This document shows positions 377 through 11,028 of a stretch of 15,425 bases of DNA, in pieces; the first letter of the stretch is position 1, and every line of letters begins with the position of its first letter. The position numbers and the translations under genes are program-made. Under the pieces are notes generated by a model. It made no database searches. It worked only from the letters and a program-made list of their open reading frames with translations, and was not told where the DNA came from. This DNA comes from a virus (Duplodnaviria; Heunggongvirae; Uroviricota; Caudoviricetes), in IMG/VR virus record IMGVR_UViG_2698536647_000007. One strand, given 5' to 3'.

Positions 377-952
377 CTACGGCAGTGCTGGCCATTCAAT
401 ATCCTGTGCAGTTGACGTATCAACACGGTTCAGCAACACCCGATACTTTTTCCAGGCTTCCAGCAATGAGGTTTCTTCCTCCGTTGCGATTTCCAGATCT
501 ACAGCATCCTGAAGTGGCGCAATATGCTCACTGGCTACCTGCATCAGGCTGTTTTTTGTTTCTTCCGCCTCTCGGATCCGGAACAGTTTTTCTGCTTCTG
601 CATCTTTCACCCAGGCTGTGCCGTTCCACTTCTGAAACTCCCCTTCCGGCGATAACCAGGTAACATTTTCCGGTAACGGACCGAGTTCAGAAATAAATAA
701 CGCGTCCCCTGACGCTACGTCATAAACCGTTTTACCCCGATGGTCTTCATCGAGATGCCACGATGCCTTATCACTGTTGAAAACAGCCACAAAGCCAGCA
801 GGAATATCTGGTGGTGCAATATCGGTACTGTTTGCTGGCAGACCTGTATGAGGCGGAATATATGCGTCACCTTCACCAATAAATTCATTAGTTCCGGCCA
901 GCAGATTATAAATTTTTATGGTCCGTGGTTGTTCACTCATTCTGAATGCCAT
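377..952 (-). CDS. tfaQ: Phage tail fibre assembly protein (Tfa chaperone), 191 aa
   Basis: ORF track 377..952(-), [24 protein letters not shown]..., recognised as the TfaQ/TfaR/TfaE family. It lies immediately after a tail-fibre tip ORF, the canonical fibre-chaperone order. Paralog assignment (Q vs R/E) rests on synteny with other Qin genes. Confidence 0.8.
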
Positions 953-2580: not shown

Positions 2581-2778
2581 CACTTTCTTAAATCTAACGA
2601 CAGATGGCTAACATTTAAGTATTGTGAAATATTATCAAATGTAATCATCATTGATTTACAAAAGATACATTTTGCCCCGAAAGGATTTCTGTCAGAAACA
2701 TCAAAAGATGATGTTCTATACTGAGAACCATGGCAACACGGGCATCTAAAGTGAATATGGTTTGTAATATTTTCTACC

Positions 2779-2991
2779 TCAAAGTGCCACTACATGAACA
2801 GCTGCAGGGCCTTTAGGTCCGTTCTCAATACCAAATTCGACTTCCTGATTCTCAGTTAACGTTTTGAAATCGTTGCTCTGAATAGCTGAGAAATGCACAA
2901 ACACATCTTTGCTACCATCTTTCGGCGTGATGAAACCAAAACCTTTTTCAGGGTTAAACCATTTCACTAAACCAGTCATTTTGTTAGACAT
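2779..2991 (-). CDS. cspI: Cold-shock protein CspI, 70 aa
   Basis: [70 protein letters not shown], recognised as CspI. The track ORF starts one Met earlier (2994). Confidence 0.9.
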
Positions 2992-3327
2992 CATTATTAC
3001 CTTTTGAAGAAGTTAGCCCTTGGGCAGAATGGTCCGAAAAAAAATATCAGAGAGAAAAACCAACAAGGAAATCTCAAGAGGTACAAATAATAAAATTATA
3101 ACAATGACTGCTTCAGATAATTTTGTAACAAACCAGAACACCATTAACGCATGATTAACCAACCATAGCAAGGATTACTTTTGTAAAGAAAAACACACGG
3201 ATGAAACAATAGCTTTATTTATTAATAAAACGTGTCATTCTGTCTAATGACCTTTTATCTTACCCTTAAGATTTCAAGGATTTTGACTCATGGAAGAGTC
3301 CTTTTTATTTAAATTTCACATTCAGCG

Positions 3328-4378
<1,051 letters not shown>

Positions 4379-4382
<4 letters not shown>

Positions 4383-4690
4383 AGATATTTATGATGAGGA
4401 CGCTCGTGCTTATTGGCAGGATTTTCAATCTTAAAGGAGTACTGATGCTGCAGATAAGACTCAACTTTTTCTGACAATTTTTCTGCTACTTCCAGGAAGA
4501 CTTGCCGGACGCTCATTCTGGCTGCTGCCTCATAAAACTCCAGCGCAGCTCCTTCAACACGGTCCATGGCGACATCCAGGCTAAAAATTTCACCGTCAAA
4601 GCGTTCTTTGTCCTGTAAGGCTACAGTTACCGTAACTTTATTCTCAAAATTACGGACTCCTTTCACAACCAGTTCATAGTCTTGAGTCAT
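4379..4690 (-). CDS. ydfR: YdfR-like protein (DUF1327-like), 103 aa, between holin and endolysin
   Basis: ORF track 4379..4690(-), MTQDYELVVKGVRNFENKVTV... Its stop/start overlaps the endolysin start (ATGA). Family name recalled from memory. Confidence 0.7.
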
Positions 4691-4694
4691 TGGA

Positions 4695-4910
4695 TTACTC
4701 TCCTCTCGCAGCCTTACGCCTGTCTTCTTTAATCTTGAAATAAAGATTTGTCAGATACGTCAGCAGGCCAAAAACCAGGCTACCCAGCACACCGATTGCA
4801 GCCCACTGTGACGGAGTTACTTTATCGAGTAACTGCAATGCCCAGAAACCAGCATTACCCGCCGATGTGCCATAGGCAACACCTGTTGTTAACTTATCCA
4901 TTGATTTCAT
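4695..4910 (-). CDS. essQ: Class II holin (phage 21 S-like pinholin), 71 aa, with dual-start motif
   Basis: The track ORF (4695..4985) starts at a GTG; the likely start is ATG 4908-4910, giving [71 protein letters not shown]. The Met1-Lys-Ser-Met4 dual start is typical of holin/antiholin pairs. Two transmembrane segments. Confidence 0.85.
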
Positions 4911-5129
4911 ATCCTCACCCCGATGTACACGGATGGTGCAATATGTTTGAAAAGATCGGAGTCTACGGGGTAGTTTTGACAGCACACGTTGTTCTCAACG
5001 GCGCTAAAAAAACATACACATTAAAAATGTGGGTAATTATTTTGAAAGAAAGTCATATATAAAATAATAATACGAGAAATGTTTTCATATTTAGTGTACT
5101 GTATACGGCCATTTATACAGGAAAAGCCT

Positions 5130-5300
5130 ATGTCAGAACGTAAAGACTCAAAATCACGCCGTAATTATCTCGTTAAATGTTCCTGCCCAAACTGCACCCA
5201 AGAGTCAGAACACAGTTTTTCAAGAGTACAAAAAGGTGCCCTTTTGATCTGCCCTCATTGCAACAAAGTATTCCAGACAAATCTTAAAGCTGTAGCCTGA
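5130..5300 (+). CDS. Small zinc-ribbon protein (C-x2-C ... C-x2-C), 56 aa; possibly YdfK/YnaE-like
   Basis: The track ORF starts at 5079, but ATG 5130 has AGGAAA 5 nt upstream. Sequence MSERKDSKSRRNYLVKCSCPNCTQESEHSFSRVQKGALLICPHCNKVFQTNLKAVA has paired CxxC motifs. Family assignment is from memory and unverified. Confidence 0.55.
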   Translation: MSERKDSKSRRNYLVKCSCPNCTQESEHSFSRVQKGALLICPHCNKVFQTNLKAVA

Positions 5301-5354
5301 TTGATTTTATTAGTAACAAGTATTTTTTATATTTTAATAATATATTTAAAGCAG

Positions 5355-5385
5355 ATAATAAAAAACCCGCCTGAGCGGGTTTGAG
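5355..5385. terminator. Bidirectional intrinsic terminator between convergent zinc-ribbon ORF and cspB
   Basis: CCCGC-CTGA-GCGGG hairpin flanked by an A-run on one side and T-run on the other; the T6 tail is on the minus strand, so it is stronger for cspB. Confidence 0.55.
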
Positions 5386-5663
5386 ATTGTGGTGCTTTTT
5401 GTGGGAGTCATCCACTTACGCACTTTGTTTTGCCATGCCAGCAGTTAGCTTCTGCTGTAAAACTATTCATGCAGCAAACCTGCACTTCACCACAATGGTT
5501 AGCATACTTTTCCTGATTAAGATTTTGCCAAATATGCTGGCCATTGTTTCATGTATTGGACCTCCTTAATTTTTATTAAAGAAATCCAATATTCACTACT
5601 CTGTCCGTATCTCTACTCAGGCATCAGCCTTCTTCGTTATCGTATACAGACGAGCGATGAATT

Positions 5664-5879
5664 TTAATCAGTAATGATGACATTTGCTGCTGCAGGACCT
5701 TTAGCACCACTCTCTATAGAGAAGGTAACCTTTTGACCTTCAAATAAGGTTCGATAATTATCATTCTGAATCGCAGAAAAATGCACAAACACATCTTTAC
5801 TACCATCAACAGGAGAAATAAAGCCGAAACCTTTATCAGCGTTAAACCATTTTACTAAACCAGTCATTTTATTTGACAT
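5664..5879 (-). CDS. cspB: Cold-shock protein CspB, 71 aa
   Basis: [67 protein letters not shown]..., recognised as CspB. About 300 bp of divergent leader is shared with cspF. Confidence 0.9.
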
Positions 5880-6179
5880 TCTACATTCCTTAACTTGAGC
5901 CTTTCGGCATAAATGGTTTGCATAACAGAAACGACTTCGTACTTAATTGGAGAGACTCAAAGAAGGAATAAGTGAATAACACCTGAAATGAGAACTGCTT
6001 TAGTAAACTACTTCGTATATCGTCTGTTCTTCAAACCGACGCAATCATTAACGCATAGTTGAACATATGAAGCAATGTTTATTTTAGACATCCAGCCATC
6101 TTCAACCCCATCAAAAAACTATAGCTTTCTTCAGGAACGTGTGTATAGTGCGCCAAGTTATCAGTATTAAGGAATTTTT

Positions 6180-8287: not shown

Positions 8288-8655
8288 TGCGCCGGTACCA
8301 TAACGGTGAATGACTGTTTCAGTGTGATGGTAGTCGAGACTAAGGGCTTTCTTAACCTCGTATCCGCGCCTGCGGTAGCCTCCATAATTGCAGGCACTAG
8401 CGCCGTGAACTTTTCACGCTTATCCCTGGTGTCAATAGCCTTCCAGCGTTCGAATATCTTCACTCGATTAACGCCAAGCGCTCGCTGATCAACCGCGCCA
8501 CCTTCATCTGTGACACGCTGAACATCGATGTTCGGGCGCTCTTTCAAAGACCAAAATGCTTCAGTGATTAATATCGTCGCCTGCTCCTGTGTCATTCCTG
8601 GTCGACATATCCAGGCATCCAGAGCCTCACGAGCCTGTTCAGGAGTGATTTTCAT
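8206..8655 (-). CDS. Hypothetical protein, 149-aa frame, directly downstream of dicC; possibly the N-terminal part of the same gene as 7580..8287
   Basis: ORF track 8206..8655(-), MKITPEQAREALDAW... ATG overlaps the 3' end of dicC by 17 nt. No recognisable motif. Confidence 0.45.
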   Translation of the reverse strand: MKITPEQAREALDAWICRPGMTQEQATILITEAFWSLKERPNIDVQRVTDEGGAVDQRALGVNRVKIFERWKAIDTRDKREKFTALVPAIMEATAGADTRLRKPLVSTTITLKQSFTVMVPAQWCCVGTATTNCVTRHRNHWSCLLNKI

Positions 8656-8869
8656 TGTTCAACCGCCCCGCCCGCTTCGTCTTACGATATTCGTCATAAA
8701 CTTTGGGATCATACTGAAGCTCCCCGCCAGATGCCTCCTGTAGACGCATCGCGCGACCTTCGGGAACTAAATCCCCTTTCCAGCTATAAAGCGAAGCCAA
8801 ACGAATACCAGCTGCTTGTGCAAGTTTTGTTTTTGAACCGAAATACAAAAGAGCGTCAGTTTTAAGCAT
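8639..8869 (-). CDS. dicC: DicC, Cro-like regulator, 76 aa
   Basis: MLKTDALLYFGSKTKLAQAAGIRLASLYSWKGDLVPEGRAMRLQEASGGELQYDPKVYDEYRKTKRAGRLNNENHS, recognised as DicC. AGGTG lies 6 nt upstream of the ATG. Divergent from dicA. Confidence 0.9.
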   Translation of the reverse strand: MLKTDALLYFGSKTKLAQAAGIRLASLYSWKGDLVPEGRAMRLQEASGGELQYDPKVYDEYRKTKRAGRLNNENHS

Positions 8870-8952: not shown

Positions 8953-9360
8953 ATGGATACAAAAAATTTAACTATCGGCGAACGCATTAGGTATCGTCGG
9001 AAAAACCTCAAACACACCCAAAGGTCTCTTGCTAAAGCCCTGAAAATCTCCCATGTGTCTGTTTCACAATGGGAACGGGATGATAGTGAACCTACAGGGA
9101 AGAACCTTTTTGCCCTCAGCAAAGTATTGCAATGCTCACCAACATGGATTCTATTTGGCGATGAAGACAAGCAATCTACAACACCTGTTGAGAAGCCAGT
9201 TGCCTTATCTCCCAAAGAACTAGAGCTCCTTGAGCTGTTTAATGCACTGCCAGAATCAGAACAGGATACCCAGCTCGCCGAAATGCGAGCTCGAGTAAAA
9301 AACTTCAATAAACTCTTTGAAGAATTACTAAAAGCCCGTCAGCGGACAAATAAAAGATAA
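8953..9360 (+). CDS. dicA: DicA, HTH (XRE-type) repressor of the dicB operon, 135 aa
   Basis: MDTKNLTIGERIRYRRKNLKHTQRSLAKALKISHVSVSQWERDD..., recognised as DicA with an N-terminal helix-turn-helix. Confidence 0.9.
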   Translation: MDTKNLTIGERIRYRRKNLKHTQRSLAKALKISHVSVSQWERDDSEPTGKNLFALSKVLQCSPTWILFGDEDKQSTTPVEKPVALSPKELELLELFNALPESEQDTQLAEMRARVKNFNKLFEELLKARQRTNKR

Positions 9361-9526: not shown

Positions 9527-9679
9527 ATGGATACTATCGATCTTGGCAACAACGAGTCTCTGGTATACGGCGTGTTTCCAAACCAAGACGGCACGTTCAC
9601 GGCGATGACGTATACCAAAAGCAAAACGTTTAAAACCGAAGCTGGCGCGCGTCGCTGGTTAGCCAGAAATACTGACTGA
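9527..9679 (+). CDS. ydfA: YdfA-like small protein, 50 aa, first gene of the dicB operon
   Basis: The track ORF starts at 9449, but ATG 9527 has GAGGT upstream and gives MDTIDLGNNESLVYGVFPNQDGTFTAMTYTKSKTFKTEAGARRWLARNTD. Stop overlaps the next ATG. Confidence 0.75.
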   Translation: MDTIDLGNNESLVYGVFPNQDGTFTAMTYTKSKTFKTEAGARRWLARNTD

Positions 9680-9690
9680 TGAGGTTGACG

Positions 9691-10065
9691 ATGGAATTTA
9701 AAGATTTACCAATGCCATTCCAGGAAATGGCAGCGAATATAGTTCATTCTCAATTGGCGACTCTTGACCTGAGTACCGTAGAAAAAGAAACCATCGATAA
9801 TATATCCGGTAACGTGCGTCGTGCCTTTATCGGACTATACGAAGAGAAGCAACTCTCTGATAACCAGGATTTACATAAAAAAGACTTCCTGGAATTAATG
9901 GACATCATTGATAAGGGATTTGGCTTGTTAATGAAACAGAAAGGGATTCGAATGAACCCCCTTGAAAATTACTTCGCAACAAGAAGCATTAATTCCTGTG
10001 ATTTAAAGCATCCCGCCACAGACGGGAGTGTTATAGTTAGCCATGAGATTTCGATTAATCATTAA
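9691..10065 (+). CDS. YdfB/YdfC-like protein, single 124-aa frame
   Basis: Track ORF 9679..10065; the second ATG at 9691 has GAGG 6 nt upstream (MEFKDLPMPFQEMAANIVHSQLATLDLS...). I recall two short ORFs (ydfB, ydfC) annotated here in K-12; in this window the frame is continuous. Confidence 0.55.
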   Translation: MEFKDLPMPFQEMAANIVHSQLATLDLSTVEKETIDNISGNVRRAFIGLYEEKQLSDNQDLHKKDFLELMDIIDKGFGLLMKQKGIRMNPLENYFATRSINSCDLKHPATDGSVIVSHEISINH

Positions 10066-10276
10066 AATCAATAGCTATTTCAATAAGTGATGCCATCTCG
10101 TTGCATTTTGTTGAATTCATCTTACGTAATGAGTCACAAATATCTGATGGTTGTGATGCTGCTGGCAACTTAGCCGCAAGTAGCATAATTGCCGTTTTTA
10201 TAGCAGTGAGTTCATCCGCAAGTCCAGCAGGAGAAACATCATGGTTCAACTGGATATTTACATTTTTACTAGTCAT
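10055..10276 (-). CDS. Candidate small protein, 73 aa, antisense to the dicB operon, with a strong Shine-Dalgarno sequence
   Basis: ORF track 10055..10276(-). Minus strand reads caGGAGGgggaaATG, a GGAGG 5 nt from the start. Convergently overlaps the end of the YdfB/C-like ORF by 11 nt. No recognisable family. Confidence 0.4.
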   Translation of the reverse strand: MTSKNVNIQLNHDVSPAGLADELTAIKTAIMLLAAKLPAASQPSDICDSLRKMNSTKCNEMASLIEIAIDFND

Positions 10277-10612
10277 TTCCCCCTCCTGATGGGTTGGTAA
10301 TTAAGGAGTTCTCCACGGGTTAGGTGGAGTGCGTGCGCCGGACACGGGTGAGCATCCGGCAGCACCAGTTTACCACTGGTTAATTTTCCCTGAAAAGTCA
10401 GGGCATAACGCGAAAGCGCACGGCGAGGCTGTTAGTTCATAAATGGTCTGTCGTTAAATTTTCGTCGACCGTGCGCTTCCGGTTGTGGCAATCCGCGAAA
10501 TAGCGCGGCGGTAAGTATGGCGGGGTTATCCCTTCCCCGTTGAGGACACCGGGTTGTCAGGTTGACCATACGCTTAAGTGACAACCCCGCTGCAACGCCC
10601 TCTGTTATCAAT

Positions 10613-10670
10613 TTTCTGGTGACGTTTGGCGGTATCAGTTTTACTTCGTGACTGCTCTGCCGCCCTTTTT
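10613..10670 (+). ncRNA. dicF: DicF small RNA (antisense regulator of ftsZ and other mRNAs)
   Basis: TTTCTGGTGACGTTTGGCGGTATCAGTTTTACTTCGTGACTGCTCTGCCGCCCTTTTT matches the DicF sequence as I remember it, with a GGCGG...CCGCC stem and U-tail at the 3' end. It lies between the ydfB/C region and dicB. Exact 5' end is approximate. Confidence 0.8.
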
Positions 10671-10839
10671 AAAGTGAATTTTGTGATGCGGTGAATGCGG
10701 CTAAGCGCACGCGGAACAGTTAAAACCAAAAACAGTGTTATGGGTGGATTCTCTGCATCCGGCGTTAATTGTTAACTGGTTAACGTCACCTGGAGGCACC
10801 AGGCACCGCATCACAAAATTCATTGTTGAGGACGCGATA

Positions 10840-11028
10840 ATGGAAACGTTATTACCAAACGTCAATACGTCTGAAGGTTGTTTTGAAATTGGTGTCAGAA
10901 TCAGTAACCCTGCATTTACTGAAGATGCCATTAATAAGAGAAAACACGAACGGGAGTTATTAAATAAAATATGCATTCTTTCAATGCTGGCCCGTTTACG
11001 CCTGATGCAAAAAGGACGCTGGCAATGA
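10840..11028 (+). CDS. dicB: DicB cell-division inhibitor, 62 aa
   Basis: The track ORF (10735..11028) is longer, but ATG 10840 preceded by GAGGA gives METLLPNVNTSEGCFEIGVRISNPAFTEDAINKRKHERELLNKICILSMLARLRLMQKGRWQ, recognised as DicB. Confidence 0.9.
   Translation: METLLPNVNTSEGCFEIGVRISNPAFTEDAINKRKHERELLNKICILSMLARLRLMQKGRWQ

Follow-up and report, generated by a model that had tools for sequence, protein, structure and literature searches.

Few bacterial small RNAs were described before DicF, whose locus lies in both Escherichia coli K-12 and phage P1. The 15,425-nucleotide stretch of Caudoviricetes DNA analysed here (the window) carries, immediately upstream of DicF, a segment (10277-10612; positions are those of the window) for which the initial annotation had proposed two roles: a structured platform for the processing of the DicF precursor, or a separate structured RNA. 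Which parts of this segment are maintained by selection on RNA structure, and what might they do? The most conserved RNA element at the DicF locus is a folded domain ahead of DicF, and not DicF itself. This domain, module C, is without an Rfam family and falls by position within what in E. coli K-12 is called the 190-nt 'DicF precursor'; roughly three in four complete E. coli genomes contain a match to the segment.

Composition and modular make-up of the segment

The segment is as GC-rich as had been noticed, with 54.5% G+C against a window mean of 44.5% and 38.6% and 43.2% in its flanks. This places it at the 99.8th percentile, 0.2% of the 336-nt windows of this DNA being richer. Both strands fold more stably than their dinucleotide shuffles, with z = -3.1 on the plus strand and z = -4.05 on the minus strand. 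The three inverted repeats that had been singled out are all present: CCCTGA/TCAGGG (10388-10403), AAGCGCACGG/CCGTGCGCTT (10414-23 and 10469-78) and GGTTGTCA/TGACAACC (10552-59 and 10579-86), the last with a true extent of 9 bp (10551-59/10579-87). Comparison with homologues resolves the segment and its surroundings into the following features.

10277-10291, minus strand: start region of a minus-strand 73-aa ORF (10055-10276), with AGGAGG (reverse complement of 10283-10288) 6 nt before the ATG
10292-10362, no strand assigned: module A1, two small hairpins, CTCCAC/GTGGAG (10311-16/10324-29) and GCCGGA/TCCGGC (10337-42/10355-60)
10363-10403, no strand assigned: variable stretch with ACCAGT/ACTGGT (10364-80) and CCCTGA-AAAG-TCAGGG (10388-10403)
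10404-10487, plus strand: module B, a long irregular hairpin with a variable distal part, comprising AAGCGCACGG/CCGTGCGCTT (10414-23/10469-78) and the base CATAAC/GTTGTG (10404-09/10482-87)
10482-10596, plus strand: module C, a four-way-junction RNA domain of 115 nt (alignments A2 and A3; model R1)
10597-10613, plus strand: A/U-rich single-stranded spacer (…CTCTGTTATCAAT) with the RNase E site for the 5' end of 53-nt DicF
10614-10670, plus strand: DicF sRNA and its intrinsic terminator (RF00039, 75.2 bits; GGCGG 10628-32 … GCCGCC 10659-64, T-run)
10674-10823, plus strand: long-range duplex GTGAATTTTGTGATGCGGTG/CACCGCATCACAAAATTCAT in the DicF-dicB interval, read from the sequence

The segment is a mosaic of modules, each separately mobile between phages, and it is transcribed and non-coding, an untranslated RNA spacer within the early-left (dicB) operon of the phage. 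The ORF list bears out the earlier statement that the segment contains no plus-strand ORF of at least 60 aa, since the only plus-strand ORFs that overlap it are the last 13 nt of a 62-aa ORF (10101-10289) and one ORF of 37 aa; the minus strand has a 59-aa ORF at 10432-10611. Between homologues there are indels whose lengths are not divisible by three (modules A and B together span 207-211 nt, the P2b region of module C 23-31 nt), and because these break the frame, the overlapping ORFs are not conserved. A coding remnant was rejected on these grounds. The broader proposal of a decayed coding sequence or a chance GC-rich island, devoid of function at the RNA level, could draw on modules A1 and A2, which are conserved without covariation. 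It is nevertheless hardly credible, given the frame-breaking indels, the presence of the segment in 4,116 of 5,426 complete E. coli genomes and in distant phages, and the compensatory changes in modules B and C, whose pair counts contradict it for 10404-10596. E. coli genomes often carry several copies of the segment, including those in Shiga-toxin phages. The K-12 copy is 91% identical to the window across 10292-10612.

The 5' third shows no evidence of selected RNA structure, and module A (10292-10403, of which A1 is 10292-10362) is conserved in sequence only. The CTCCAC/GTGGAG hairpin of A1 is paired in 97% of alignment cells without a single compensatory change. GCCGGA/TCCGGC is invariant, the same hairpin having served as search pattern. 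ACCAGT/ACTGGT is peculiar to the variant of the window, with 25% of cells paired elsewhere, and CCCTGA/TCAGGG, paired in 87% of cells, lacks compensatory changes and is disrupted in K-12-type copies (…TCAGACC). Instead of belonging to the DicF precursor, this third (10277-10403) might conceivably serve the minus strand, as promoter or 5' UTR of the 73-aa gene, a suggestion that we hold with considerable doubt. The gene matches phrog_7249 at 3e-45 and has a strong Shine-Dalgarno sequence and ATG at 10276-10288. In non-K-12 types A1 always adjoins a minus-strand small ORF (in the window and at loci L002, L003, L150 and L151), and it moves independently of the rest of the segment, DicF included: in phage phi367 it precedes a PAPS-reductase gene, with no DicF. 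Against this, a scan of the minus strand of 10277-10612 found no sigma-70-like promoter, and K-12-type copies, which lack the 73-aa ORF and whose homology to the window begins at 10292, retain 10292-10403 without any minus-strand ORF.

A pseudoknotted RNA domain and its hairpin neighbour

The helices of module C are all on the plus strand.

10482-89/10589-96, plus strand: P0, 8 bp
10493-97/10504-08, plus strand: P1
10510-12/10548-50, plus strand: P2a
10515-10520, plus strand: 5' strand of the pseudoknot, GTATGG, whose partner CCATAC lies at 10566-71 in the P3 loop
10521-25/10535-39, plus strand: P2b, a variable hairpin with a pyrimidine-rich loop
10551-59/10579-87, plus strand: P3, with an invariant 19-nt loop (10560-78)

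Module C is a compact four-way junction locked by a 6-bp pseudoknot, and it is deeply conserved. Its pairs are formed in 95-98% of cells, as against 31-56% in slid controls, and 11-13 pairs have changed on both sides, a number reached by 0 of 500 shuffles; the count of 13, with 98% of cells paired as against 31-52% in the slid controls, was made over 34 diverse copies, taken from prophages of Escherichia, Salmonella, Citrobacter, Erwinia and Izhakiella and from P1/P7. The pseudoknot is paired in 99.5% of cells. It occurs as GCATGG/CCATGC in P1-type copies and again in one E. coli-type copy (L314), with GTGTGG and CCATGC as wobble variants. P2b is maintained with at least 8 different stem sequences, and the sequences of the loops and junctions are invariant. 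G·U pairs make up about 8.5% of cells, which identifies the plus strand as the RNA strand, and the minimum-free-energy fold of the 193-nt RNA contains every helix of the covariation model. The idea of a separate structured RNA is thus supported for 10482-10596 by strong covariation. Rfam 15 has no family over modules B or C, whether the window was searched at gathering thresholds, 10000-10900 at E<=10 or six divergent loci at E<=0.01. ARAGORN finds no tRNA or tmRNA gene in 10200-10750, and the C4 and isrK models have no match in 10000-10900 at E<=10, while both are found in the positive control, locus L124.

Module B (10404-10487) is likewise under structural selection. Its 18 counted pairs are formed in 99.4% of cells, three of them have changed on both sides (GCGCACAG/CTGTGCGC; GCGCATTCC/GGAATGCGC), and the stem appears in minimum-free-energy folds. 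It is a near-continuous duplex of about 20 bp under selection, of the type cut by RNase III. The stems of modules B and C both carry compensatory changes across homologues, and of the three repeats noticed at the outset GGTTGTCA/TGACAACC covaries strongly, the 10-bp AAGCGCACGG/CCGTGCGCTT has compensatory changes, and CCCTGA/TCAGGG has none. CA(C/T)AAC, at the foot of module B, is an alternative partner for the 5' strand of P0, in a pairing that leaves the terminator untouched. In the window at equilibrium P0 wins over this pairing, and P0 and the module B stem coexist. A naive best-helix search could not set the pairing of GTTGTGG with an upstream CACAAC apart from shuffled controls, which gave equally long helices, and this pairing stands as an observation only. 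In the 3' arm of module B, UGCUCUCUUC could be read as boxA-like, but it sits within a helix and is diverged in the window, and the reading was set aside.

The original source for the 190-nt DicF species is reportedly Faubladier, in 1990. In K-12 the 5' end of this RNA depends on RNase III, and RNase E produces 53-nt DicF (PMC10448788). By arithmetic, 190 nt counted back from the terminator lead to about 10477-10481, at the junction between the 3' arm of module B and module C. RNase III may thus cut in the module B stem to make the 5' end of the 190-nt RNA, a position that comes from this arithmetic, and the RNA would consist of module C, a short spacer and DicF. The claim of a processing platform holds for part of the segment, as published for RNase III and RNase E on the K-12 copy (PMC10448788); 10277-10403 shows no evidence of selected RNA structure. 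RNase E makes the 5' end of 53-nt DicF (PMC5069750, PMC10448788) at a site 17 nt past P0. The spacer between P0 and the terminator measures 9-60 nt among lineages and is variable in sequence. DicF itself matches its Rfam model at 10614-10665, with a terminator hairpin of -15.9 kcal/mol; the same model (RF00039) has no match within 10277-10612 even at E<=10. A 72-nt DicF is a product of RNase III (PMC5069750), and the GTGAATTTTGTGATGCGGTG/CACCGCATCACAAAATTCAT duplex is probably the site at which it is made, judging from the sequence. A match to STnc100 at this duplex is sub-threshold (38.7 bits for a gathering score of 47).

Module C is far more conserved than DicF, and the notion that the structure exists to make DicF is unsupported: module C also occurs without DicF and beside unrelated terminator hairpins (cdtI, Salmonella, Erwinia and P1 types), two lineages (L261 and L279) have module C with no adjacent sRNA-like terminator, and the DicF-like RNA of phage phiSTEC1589 persists without module C.

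Genomic setting and possible functions

Many temperate phages carry module C, P1 and Qin (a prophage of E. coli K-12) among them, always on the sense strand of a repressor-controlled early operon. It begins about 35 nt past the start of the C1-controlled Pban in P1/P7, lies just downstream of cI/dicA and ahead of kil/rec/exo in cdtI, 2H10, Stx2c, Salmonella F1055 and pPE4, and is separated from its promoter by more than 1 kb, with three or four genes between, in K-12-type prophages. An intrinsic terminator follows 9-60 nt past P0 in about 27 of 30 sequence clusters (lineages). The interior sequence of this terminator varies widely, and in the cdtI, Salmonella, Erwinia and P1 types module C adjoins unrelated terminator hairpins. 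At L261 and L279 it lies in a non-coding region of about 1 kb, the next terminator being 240-320 nt off. Each locus gave one match, with no second copy of the putR kind in the right operon. T-arm-like hairpins lie near the copies of some relatives, and P1 has tRNA genes in the module C operon. Loop sequences stay invariant even between phages with no neighbouring protein gene in common, which argues for a host partner or for self-contained chemistry.

No N-like protein was found among the early-left ORFs of the window. For 130 upstream ORFs from 29 lineages, no N-like family, phrog_271 included, was among the top 25 PHROG families listed, each matched by at least 3 ORFs; one N family served as positive control in this search (the N of L150, 1.7e-21). 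The N-carrying phage phiSTEC1589 has kept the flanks and a DicF-like RNA and precisely lacks module C, with only a GTTGT-GAATA-ACAAC hairpin in its place.

The reading that we prefer, with a rough probability of 0.3, is that module C is a cis-acting leader element that sets terminator read-through, comparable to put with an unrelated fold. Its target would be either the polymerase as it transcribes or the nascent terminator nearly always found downstream, and it would set the amount of read-through into kil/dicB and the recombination genes. It would serve phages that have no N-type antiterminator, as put RNAs do in HK022 and HK639, and DicF-type sRNAs would be the product of those transcripts that terminate. 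The covariation-supported fold is consistent with this proposal, as are the sense-strand position in repressor-controlled early operons, the terminator close behind P0 in most clusters, the loops invariant across phages with no common neighbouring protein gene, the negative search for an N-like protein among the early-left ORFs of the window and the lack of module C in the N-carrying phiSTEC1589. Several points weigh against it. The anticorrelation with N rests on one phage type lacking module C, there is no homology to put and the fold differs, and the terminator is distant at L261 and L279. Lambdoid phages can do without their early-left genes, so there is no a priori need for antitermination. 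Moreover, a put-like element needs no immediate terminator, and the tight terminator link is therefore no less compatible with an attenuator or an sRNA unit. The K-12 data point both ways: a Plac-driven operon gives DicB toxicity, yet DicF is undetectable on Northern blots, an isolated dicF gene on a plasmid giving abundant DicF (PMC5069750), which suits read-through; conversely, a terminated 1,146-nt ydfABC-dicF transcript is visible and the read-through form only with RNase E inactivated, and the 190-nt RNA builds up in stationary phase as a discrete species (PMC10448788). Such a stable free RNA is contrary to what a polymerase-bound antiterminator predicts.

That same stability suits an early phage non-coding RNA that acts in trans, with module C as its conserved body. 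The domain and the terminator hairpin would together make up a single RNA, in K-12 the 190-nt species and in P1 an RNA of about 210 nt from Pban; binding or sequestration of a host factor, or the shielding of the attached base-pairing tail, would fall to the domain, and DicF would be a lineage-specific 3' derivative. We hold this, too, with considerable doubt: the domain and terminator do co-occur, with a tail of varying sequence, in about 27 of 30 lineages, a conserved host partner is suggested by the invariance of the loops, and in P1 the promoter, domain and terminator make a compact gene-like unit, but the domain is always embedded in the sense strand of an early operon and never free-standing, L261 and L279 lack a nearby terminator, and the stability of the 190-nt RNA may merely reflect its compact fold. 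The dependence of two 5' ends in K-12 on RNase III and RNase E (PMC5069750, PMC10448788) would be explained if modules B and C were punctuation for processing and stability, the hairpin recruiting RNase III and the cloverleaf-like domain positioning the RNase E cut and capping the flanking RNA ends. The RNase E site in a single-stranded A/U-rich spacer so close to P0, the closing stem of 7-8 bp with three arms and a loop-loop contact, and the T-arm-like hairpins and tRNA genes mentioned above would fit as well. This is unlikely, however, because plain processing signals need no invariant 19-nt loop and pseudoknot kept from Erwinia prophages to P1; DicF-like RNA without the domain and the domain without DicF-like RNA both exist, and neither ARAGORN nor the C4 model of Rfam has a match here. 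Least probable among these functions is a sensor, a riboswitch or factor-binding aptamer that would make termination depend on a metabolite, tRNA, protein or small-RNA signal. The domain has the size of an aptamer, a pseudoknot and invariant unpaired nucleotides, a terminator lies at most 60 nt downstream in most lineages, and the 5' strand of P0 has an alternative partner at the module B base, CA(C/T)AAC. Nevertheless, the domain has no conserved antiterminator overlapping it, the length and sequence of the spacer vary, the equilibrium fold keeps both P0 and the module B stem, and no Rfam riboswitch matches. An attenuator chain from module C to the terminator by a 3:4 pairing, CCGCCA/UGGCGG, is not supported by the variation in the cdtI, Salmonella and Erwinia types, where it is not kept.

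If module C governs read-through into dicB/kil and the recombination genes, this would explain early-left expression in N-less temperate phages, and a new fold would be added to the very few known among RNAs with a direct action on RNA polymerase. Were it to act in trans, the '190-nt precursor' would be a functional RNA in its own right.

Comparison with known RNA systems

The 190-nt long DicF (Faubladier 1990; Ragunathan 2023) is among the systems closest to module C, which by position is its 5' 115-137 nt and which RNase E parts from 53-nt DicF in K-12. The Rfam model of DicF spans 52 nt only, and in the DicF papers compared the extra 137 nt are merely precursor (a 'long untranslated region'), although earlier DicF papers may differ. 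The fold, the pseudoknot, the conservation beyond DicF and the occurrence in P1 and in phages without DicF are absent from the papers compared; earlier ones may describe the fold. Module B, for its part, resembles the RNase III hairpin of the lambda pL (N) leader and other early RNase III sites of phages in being a long irregular early-left duplex whose cleavage by RNase III, putative for module B, sets a new 5' end. It differs in its unrelated sequence, its hypervariable distal part and the T-arm-like hairpins of some lineages, and there is no N gene after it.

C4/CI immunity RNAs are tRNA-like antisense RNAs processed by RNase P. Those of P1, P7 and P4 (RF01695) are, like module C, small structured RNAs cut from early leader transcripts of phages, P1 and P7 among them, and share its cloverleaf-like topology with a closing stem. 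In contrast, module C has no match to the C4 model (a true C4 is found in L124), its loops differ, and it lies in operon ban and not in immI. Its topology is also that of the tRNA cloverleaf (P0 of 8 bp, arms P1, P2 and P3, and a pseudoknot that joins the P1/P2 junction and the P3 loop), a resemblance of topology only. With riboswitch and attenuator leaders it has in common a conserved, pseudoknotted domain supported by covariation, invariant unpaired bases and a terminator shortly downstream. It differs from them in having no terminator/antiterminator pairing that overlaps the domain, a spacer that is variable (9-60 nt) and no Rfam match.

The put RNAs, which are cis-acting processive antiterminators, occur in lambdoid phages without N protein, and suppress pausing and termination by binding the beta-prime zinc-binding domain of RNA polymerase. 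The put RNA has two stem-loops that are arranged as a V and include a triplex (PMC9378689). At about 70 nt it differs in fold from module C, with its four-way junction and loop pseudoknot, and homology between them was rejected: with filters off, R1 has no match at HK022 putL (L130, about 2750-2820, minus strand) or putR (about 3950-4020, plus strand), nor at the annotated putL-like RNA of HK639 (34187-34312), and the short common strings GCGCGGCGG and ACCAU(G/A)CG were judged not significant. The likeness is one of position. The put RNAs of HK022 and HK639 and module C are nascent sense-strand RNAs downstream of a repressor-controlled early promoter and upstream of intrinsic terminators, as seen for module C behind Pban in P1/P7, at the lambdoid loci past cI/dicA and in the terminators of about 27 of 30 clusters. 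In HK639 there is a single putL-like element of 126 nt, in the left operon, and both its size and its single-copy pattern resemble those of module C. We tentatively suggest that module C may be a second, structurally unrelated class of cis-acting RNA that reprograms host transcription, a processive antiterminator in N-less lambdoid phages and in P1; otherwise, it could be a new aptamer or self-cleaving ribozyme.

Composition and modular make-up of the segment

The window is an E. coli lambdoid prophage of the Qin/Sp type, in which the segment studied here (10277-10612) fills the gap from a 73-aa ORF to the small RNA DicF. The initial annotation had described it as GC-rich, dense in inverted repeats and free of plus-strand ORFs of 60 aa or more, and this observation is confirmed: its G+C content is 54.5%, vs a window mean of 44.5% and 38.6% and 43.2% in the flanks (99.8th percentile among all 336-nt windows of this prophage); all the listed repeats were found in place, with several further ones; and it contains no plus-strand ORF of at least 60 aa. 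It folds better than its dinucleotide shuffles on both strands (z = -3.1 on the plus strand, z = -4.05 on the minus strand). Among the homologues compared there is no conserved ORF on either strand, because their indels are not multiples of three.

Features of the window
411-609, 2733-3149 and 5648-6040, all minus strand: matches to Rfam IS009 (226.7 bits) and to two cspA-type thermoregulator leaders (110 and 159 bits)
8639-8869, minus strand: dicC
8953-9360, plus strand: dicA
9527-9679: ydfA-like gene
9679-10065, plus strand: 128-aa ORF (phrog_6937)
10055-10276, minus strand: 73-aa ORF (phrog_7249)
10614-10665: DicF (RF00039, 75.2 bits)
10840-11028: dicB, then a ydfD-like gene
from 11309: exonuclease gene

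The IS009 and cspA-type matches fit the cold-shock gene cluster that Qin-like prophages carry. The 73-aa ORF, preceded by a strong Shine-Dalgarno, converges on the 128-aa ORF (overlap of 11 nt), and compared with K-12 the pair is inserted into the dicB operon; no promoter of the 73-aa gene was detectable within 500 nt, nor any minus-strand promoter in the segment.

Matches to the segment occur in 4,116 of 5,426 complete E. coli genomes, with as many as 8 per genome and identities of mostly 80-95%; the K-12 copy, which is unannotated, lies between ydfC and dicF. The left edge of the homology varies across 121 viral contigs anchored on DicF (10261, 10277, 10292, 10314, 10332, 10343, 10366, 10393), which shows the segment to be a chain of modules, here called A (10292-10403), B (10404-10487, a long hairpin) and C (10482-10596). 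In the phage collection, segment query positions 206-328 recur without an E. coli-type DicF in cdtI, 2H10, Ayreon, Stx2c phages and Salmonella F1055, and positions 217-313 in phages P1, P7, SJ46 and RCS47; positions 1-98 recur in vB_EcoP_phi367, ahead of a PAPS-reductase gene (L151, 2001-2097). Copies of P1 or E. coli type, nearly identical to enterobacterial ones, also occur in MAGs labelled Bacillota, Veillonella parvula and Collinsella (L139, L140, L145); these are most likely bin contamination, not true hosts.

Modules A and B were tested on 20 aligned variants of 10277-10487. The 10-bp hairpin of module B and its base are 99.4% paired, with three double-changed pairs, and the distal part is hypervariable. 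In module A, CTCCAC/GTGGAG is conserved with no covariation, and the annotated repeat CCCTGA/TCAGGG is disrupted in K-12-type copies. The ACCAGT/ACTGGT hairpin is confined to the window's variant, and GCCGGA/TCCGGC served as a search pattern, so that its conservation is uninformative. Across homologues, the stems of modules B and C covary, whereas CTCCAC/GTGGAG and CCCTGA/TCAGGG show no compensation. Module A1 (10292-10362) consists of two hairpins with CACGGGTNAG in both loops and travels apart from DicF. It adjoins minus-strand small ORFs wherever these are present, likewise in phi367, and the 5' end of the segment holds the Shine-Dalgarno of the 73-aa ORF.

Fold and covariation of module C

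It is firmly supported that the segment is a non-coding RNA on the DicF strand, that a long hairpin and a pseudoknotted four-way junction, both under selection, lie within its 3' 200 nt, and that module C is a widespread uncatalogued RNA domain, better conserved than DicF and separable from it. Eight distant copies of module C have an almost invariant core on either side of a variable hairpin. A scan of one-genome-per-species contigs with the invariant loop and two scans of viral contigs together yielded 121 distinct cores, which form 29 clusters at <95% identity and come from Escherichia, Shigella, Citrobacter, Trabulsiella, Salmonella, Erwinia tracheiphila, Izhakiella and P1-like elements. 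The structure was derived by RNAalifold and inspection.

Elements of module C (plus strand)
10482-89 / 10589-96: P0, closing stem
10493-97 / 10504-08: P1, hairpin
10510-12 / 10548-50: P2a, short stem enclosing P2b
10515-20 / 10566-71: pseudoknot GTATGG / CCATAC, with the second strand in the P3 loop
10521-25 / 10535-39: P2b, variable hairpin
10551-59 / 10579-87: P3, hairpin with an invariant 19-nt loop

In a MAFFT alignment (n = 21), 95.3% of cells are paired vs 34-56% with partners slid by 1-3 columns, and 11 pairs have double-sided changes vs 0-4 in the slid controls, a count matched by none of 500 shuffles. The model-based alignment (n = 34), which leans towards the model, gives 98.3% vs 31-52%, with 13 double-changed pairs. 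Helix P3 reads GGGTAACCA/TGGTTACCC in Izhakiella, GAGCTACCA/TGGTAGCTC in locus L261 and GGATCACCA/TGGTGATCC in L279; helix P1 reads CCGCA/TGCGG in L272; and the pseudoknot variant GCATGG/CCATGC is found in phage P1-type copies and, separately, in one of E. coli type (L314). P2b forms a hairpin in 33 of the 34 sequences; its stems are diverse, and its loop is rich in pyrimidines and ends in YCCUU. G·U pairs account for about 8.5% of paired cells; on the opposite strand they would read A·C, and the RNA strand is therefore that of DicF. The minimum-free-energy fold of the 193-nt RNA 10478-10670 recovers every helix.

Each locus yields a single hit with the covariance model of module C (R1). Module C falls outside every Rfam 15 family, both in the window and in six divergent loci, and ARAGORN predicts no tRNA. 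Processing events of the DicF precursor are already known. Neither Rfam 15 nor the accessible literature describes the fold, its conservation across the family or its independence from DicF, though the older literature may contain an earlier description.

Module B and the processing of DicF

In K-12, Ragunathan et al. 2023 detected DicF species of 190 and 53 nt, confirming Faubladier 1990; the 190-nt species is lost without RNase III, it accumulates and the 53-nt form vanishes upon RNase E inactivation, and both rise in stationary phase (PMC10448788). Counting 190 nt back from the terminator leads to ~10477-10481, the boundary of the module B 3' arm and P0, which is an estimate since the exact 5' nucleotide is published in figure form only. 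Such an end would make module B the RNase III substrate and the 190-nt RNA the sum of module C, a 17-nt spacer and DicF. Both halves of the earlier proposal, a separate structured RNA or a processing platform, find backing for part of the segment: covariation supports the fold of module C, and literature plus arithmetic support the module B hairpin as RNase III site and module C as the body of the 190-nt RNA. When the whole operon was driven by Plac, DicB toxicity was seen and DicF was undetected, and dicF alone on a plasmid gave abundant DicF (PMC5069750).

The P0 5' strand (GTTGTGG) can alternatively pair with CA(C/T)AAC at the base of module B. This upstream helix reaches 16 bp in the Salmonella, Erwinia and cdtI types (CACAACGATGAGAGCA/TGCTCTCTTCGTTGTG), and in L261 both partners follow a change in the middle strand. 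One may speculate that, once RNase III had cut module B, the P0 5' strand would be released and P0 could close, so that cleavage would trigger folding; the equilibrium fold of the window has the module B stem and P0 together, and a statistical test of the alternative pairing was uninformative.

A long-range duplex, GTGAATTTTGTGATGCGGTG/CACCGCATCACAAAATTCAT (10674-10693 / 10804-10823; 19 complementary bases out of 20), encloses the spacer between DicF and dicB. Since DicF position 72 lies within it, RNase III probably cuts this duplex to give the 72-nt DicF. It overlaps a sub-threshold Rfam STnc100 match (38.7 bits vs a gathering score of 47), and similar matches occur in L126 and L150.

Genomic setting and possible function of module C

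In ~27 of 30 clusters module C is followed, within 9-60 nt, by an intrinsic terminator whose base is GGCGG/CCGCC and whose interior varies. In phages P1 and P7, module C starts ~35 nt after the C1-controlled Pban start, and the terminator GCCCATCTTCGGGTGGGC-T6 follows 14 nt 3' of it, before tRNA genes and ban. In cdtI, 2H10, Stx2c, F1055 and pPE4, it sits in the leader directly downstream of the repressor gene, ahead of kil, recombination and exonuclease genes. The exceptions are L261 and L279, with terminators 240-320 nt off and module C in a ~1-kb ORF-less stretch (L261 4541-5546, L279 ~4700-5400), bounded by a promoter-like site and by a strong terminator (L261 5511-5542). There, a long CAACAGG…CCGTTGTT hairpin directly follows module C, and the stretch may be a much larger non-coding RNA. 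In vB_Apl-pPE4 (L126 ~2600-2800), the spacer and terminator that follow module C (CCCCGCCACAACAACCCATGTTGATTACCTTTTGGCGGGTATCC…CCCGCCCTTTTT) form a unit present as a tandem duplicate; this phage is recorded from Actinobacillus, and both its DNA and its gene content (ydaT, kil, exonuclease VIII, DicA) resemble those of an E. coli Rac-type prophage.

Leaders of Salmonella, Erwinia and Izhakiella type carry T-arm-like hairpins (CTGGTTCGATTCCAG, GCGGGTTCAATTCCTGCC, then ACC) within the distal part of the module B hairpin (L125 ~2390-2480, L148 ~4440-4520, L149 ~2280-2360, and L272 upstream of module C, where CCGGGTTCAAATCCCGGCACCA is also found), and a post-terminator hairpin with an anticodon-loop-like GGGCTCATAACCC. 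These pieces are tRNA-like fragments within the early-left leader. In non-E. coli types the module B 3' arm reads UGCUCUCUUC or UGCUCUUUCC, resembling the boxA consensus UGCUCUUUAACAA. The string lies inside a helix, just 5' of P0 in L124, L125, L148 and L149 (e.g., AGTGCTCTCTTCGTTGTGG), reappears in similar form in the post-terminator hairpin and has diverged in the window (10471-10489, UGCGCUUCC).

The Stx1c phage phiSTEC1589 (and L213) encodes an N-like protein (phrog_271, 1.7e-21), N being the phage antiterminator. It has modules A and B at 79% identity, a DicF-like RNA at 35.6 bits and, at the site of module C, only GGTTGTG-AATA-ACAAC, i.e., P0 with a small loop cap. No N-like family is prominent in the matches listed for 130 upstream ORFs of 29 module C lineages, where repressor families are matched repeatedly, by up to 15 of these ORFs.

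Position, strand, terminator linkage, invariant loops (which imply a host partner) and this N-related pattern lead us to rank first, at a probability of only about 0.3, that module C would act in cis on elongation and termination at the adjacent terminator. The main arguments against this cis-acting role are that put-like action needs no nearby terminator, that the 190-nt RNA exists free and is stable, that the transcript seen in wild-type K-12 is the terminated one, and that the early-left genes are dispensable. Almost as plausible, and still doubtful, is that the 190-nt unit acts in trans or as a scaffold. A role in processing and stability seems rather unlikely, and an attenuator sensing a ligand or factor is the least probable of the four.

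The cis-acting role invites comparison with put, the cis-acting antiterminator RNAs of HK022 and HK639. Model R1 matches neither HK022 putL/putR nor the annotated HK639 putL-like RNA. Besides that single putL-like RNA, HK639 has an annotated 'M3-like RNA' in its right operon, behind the cII-like gene (L340 37910-37969). Module C would share with put a logic, not an ancestry.
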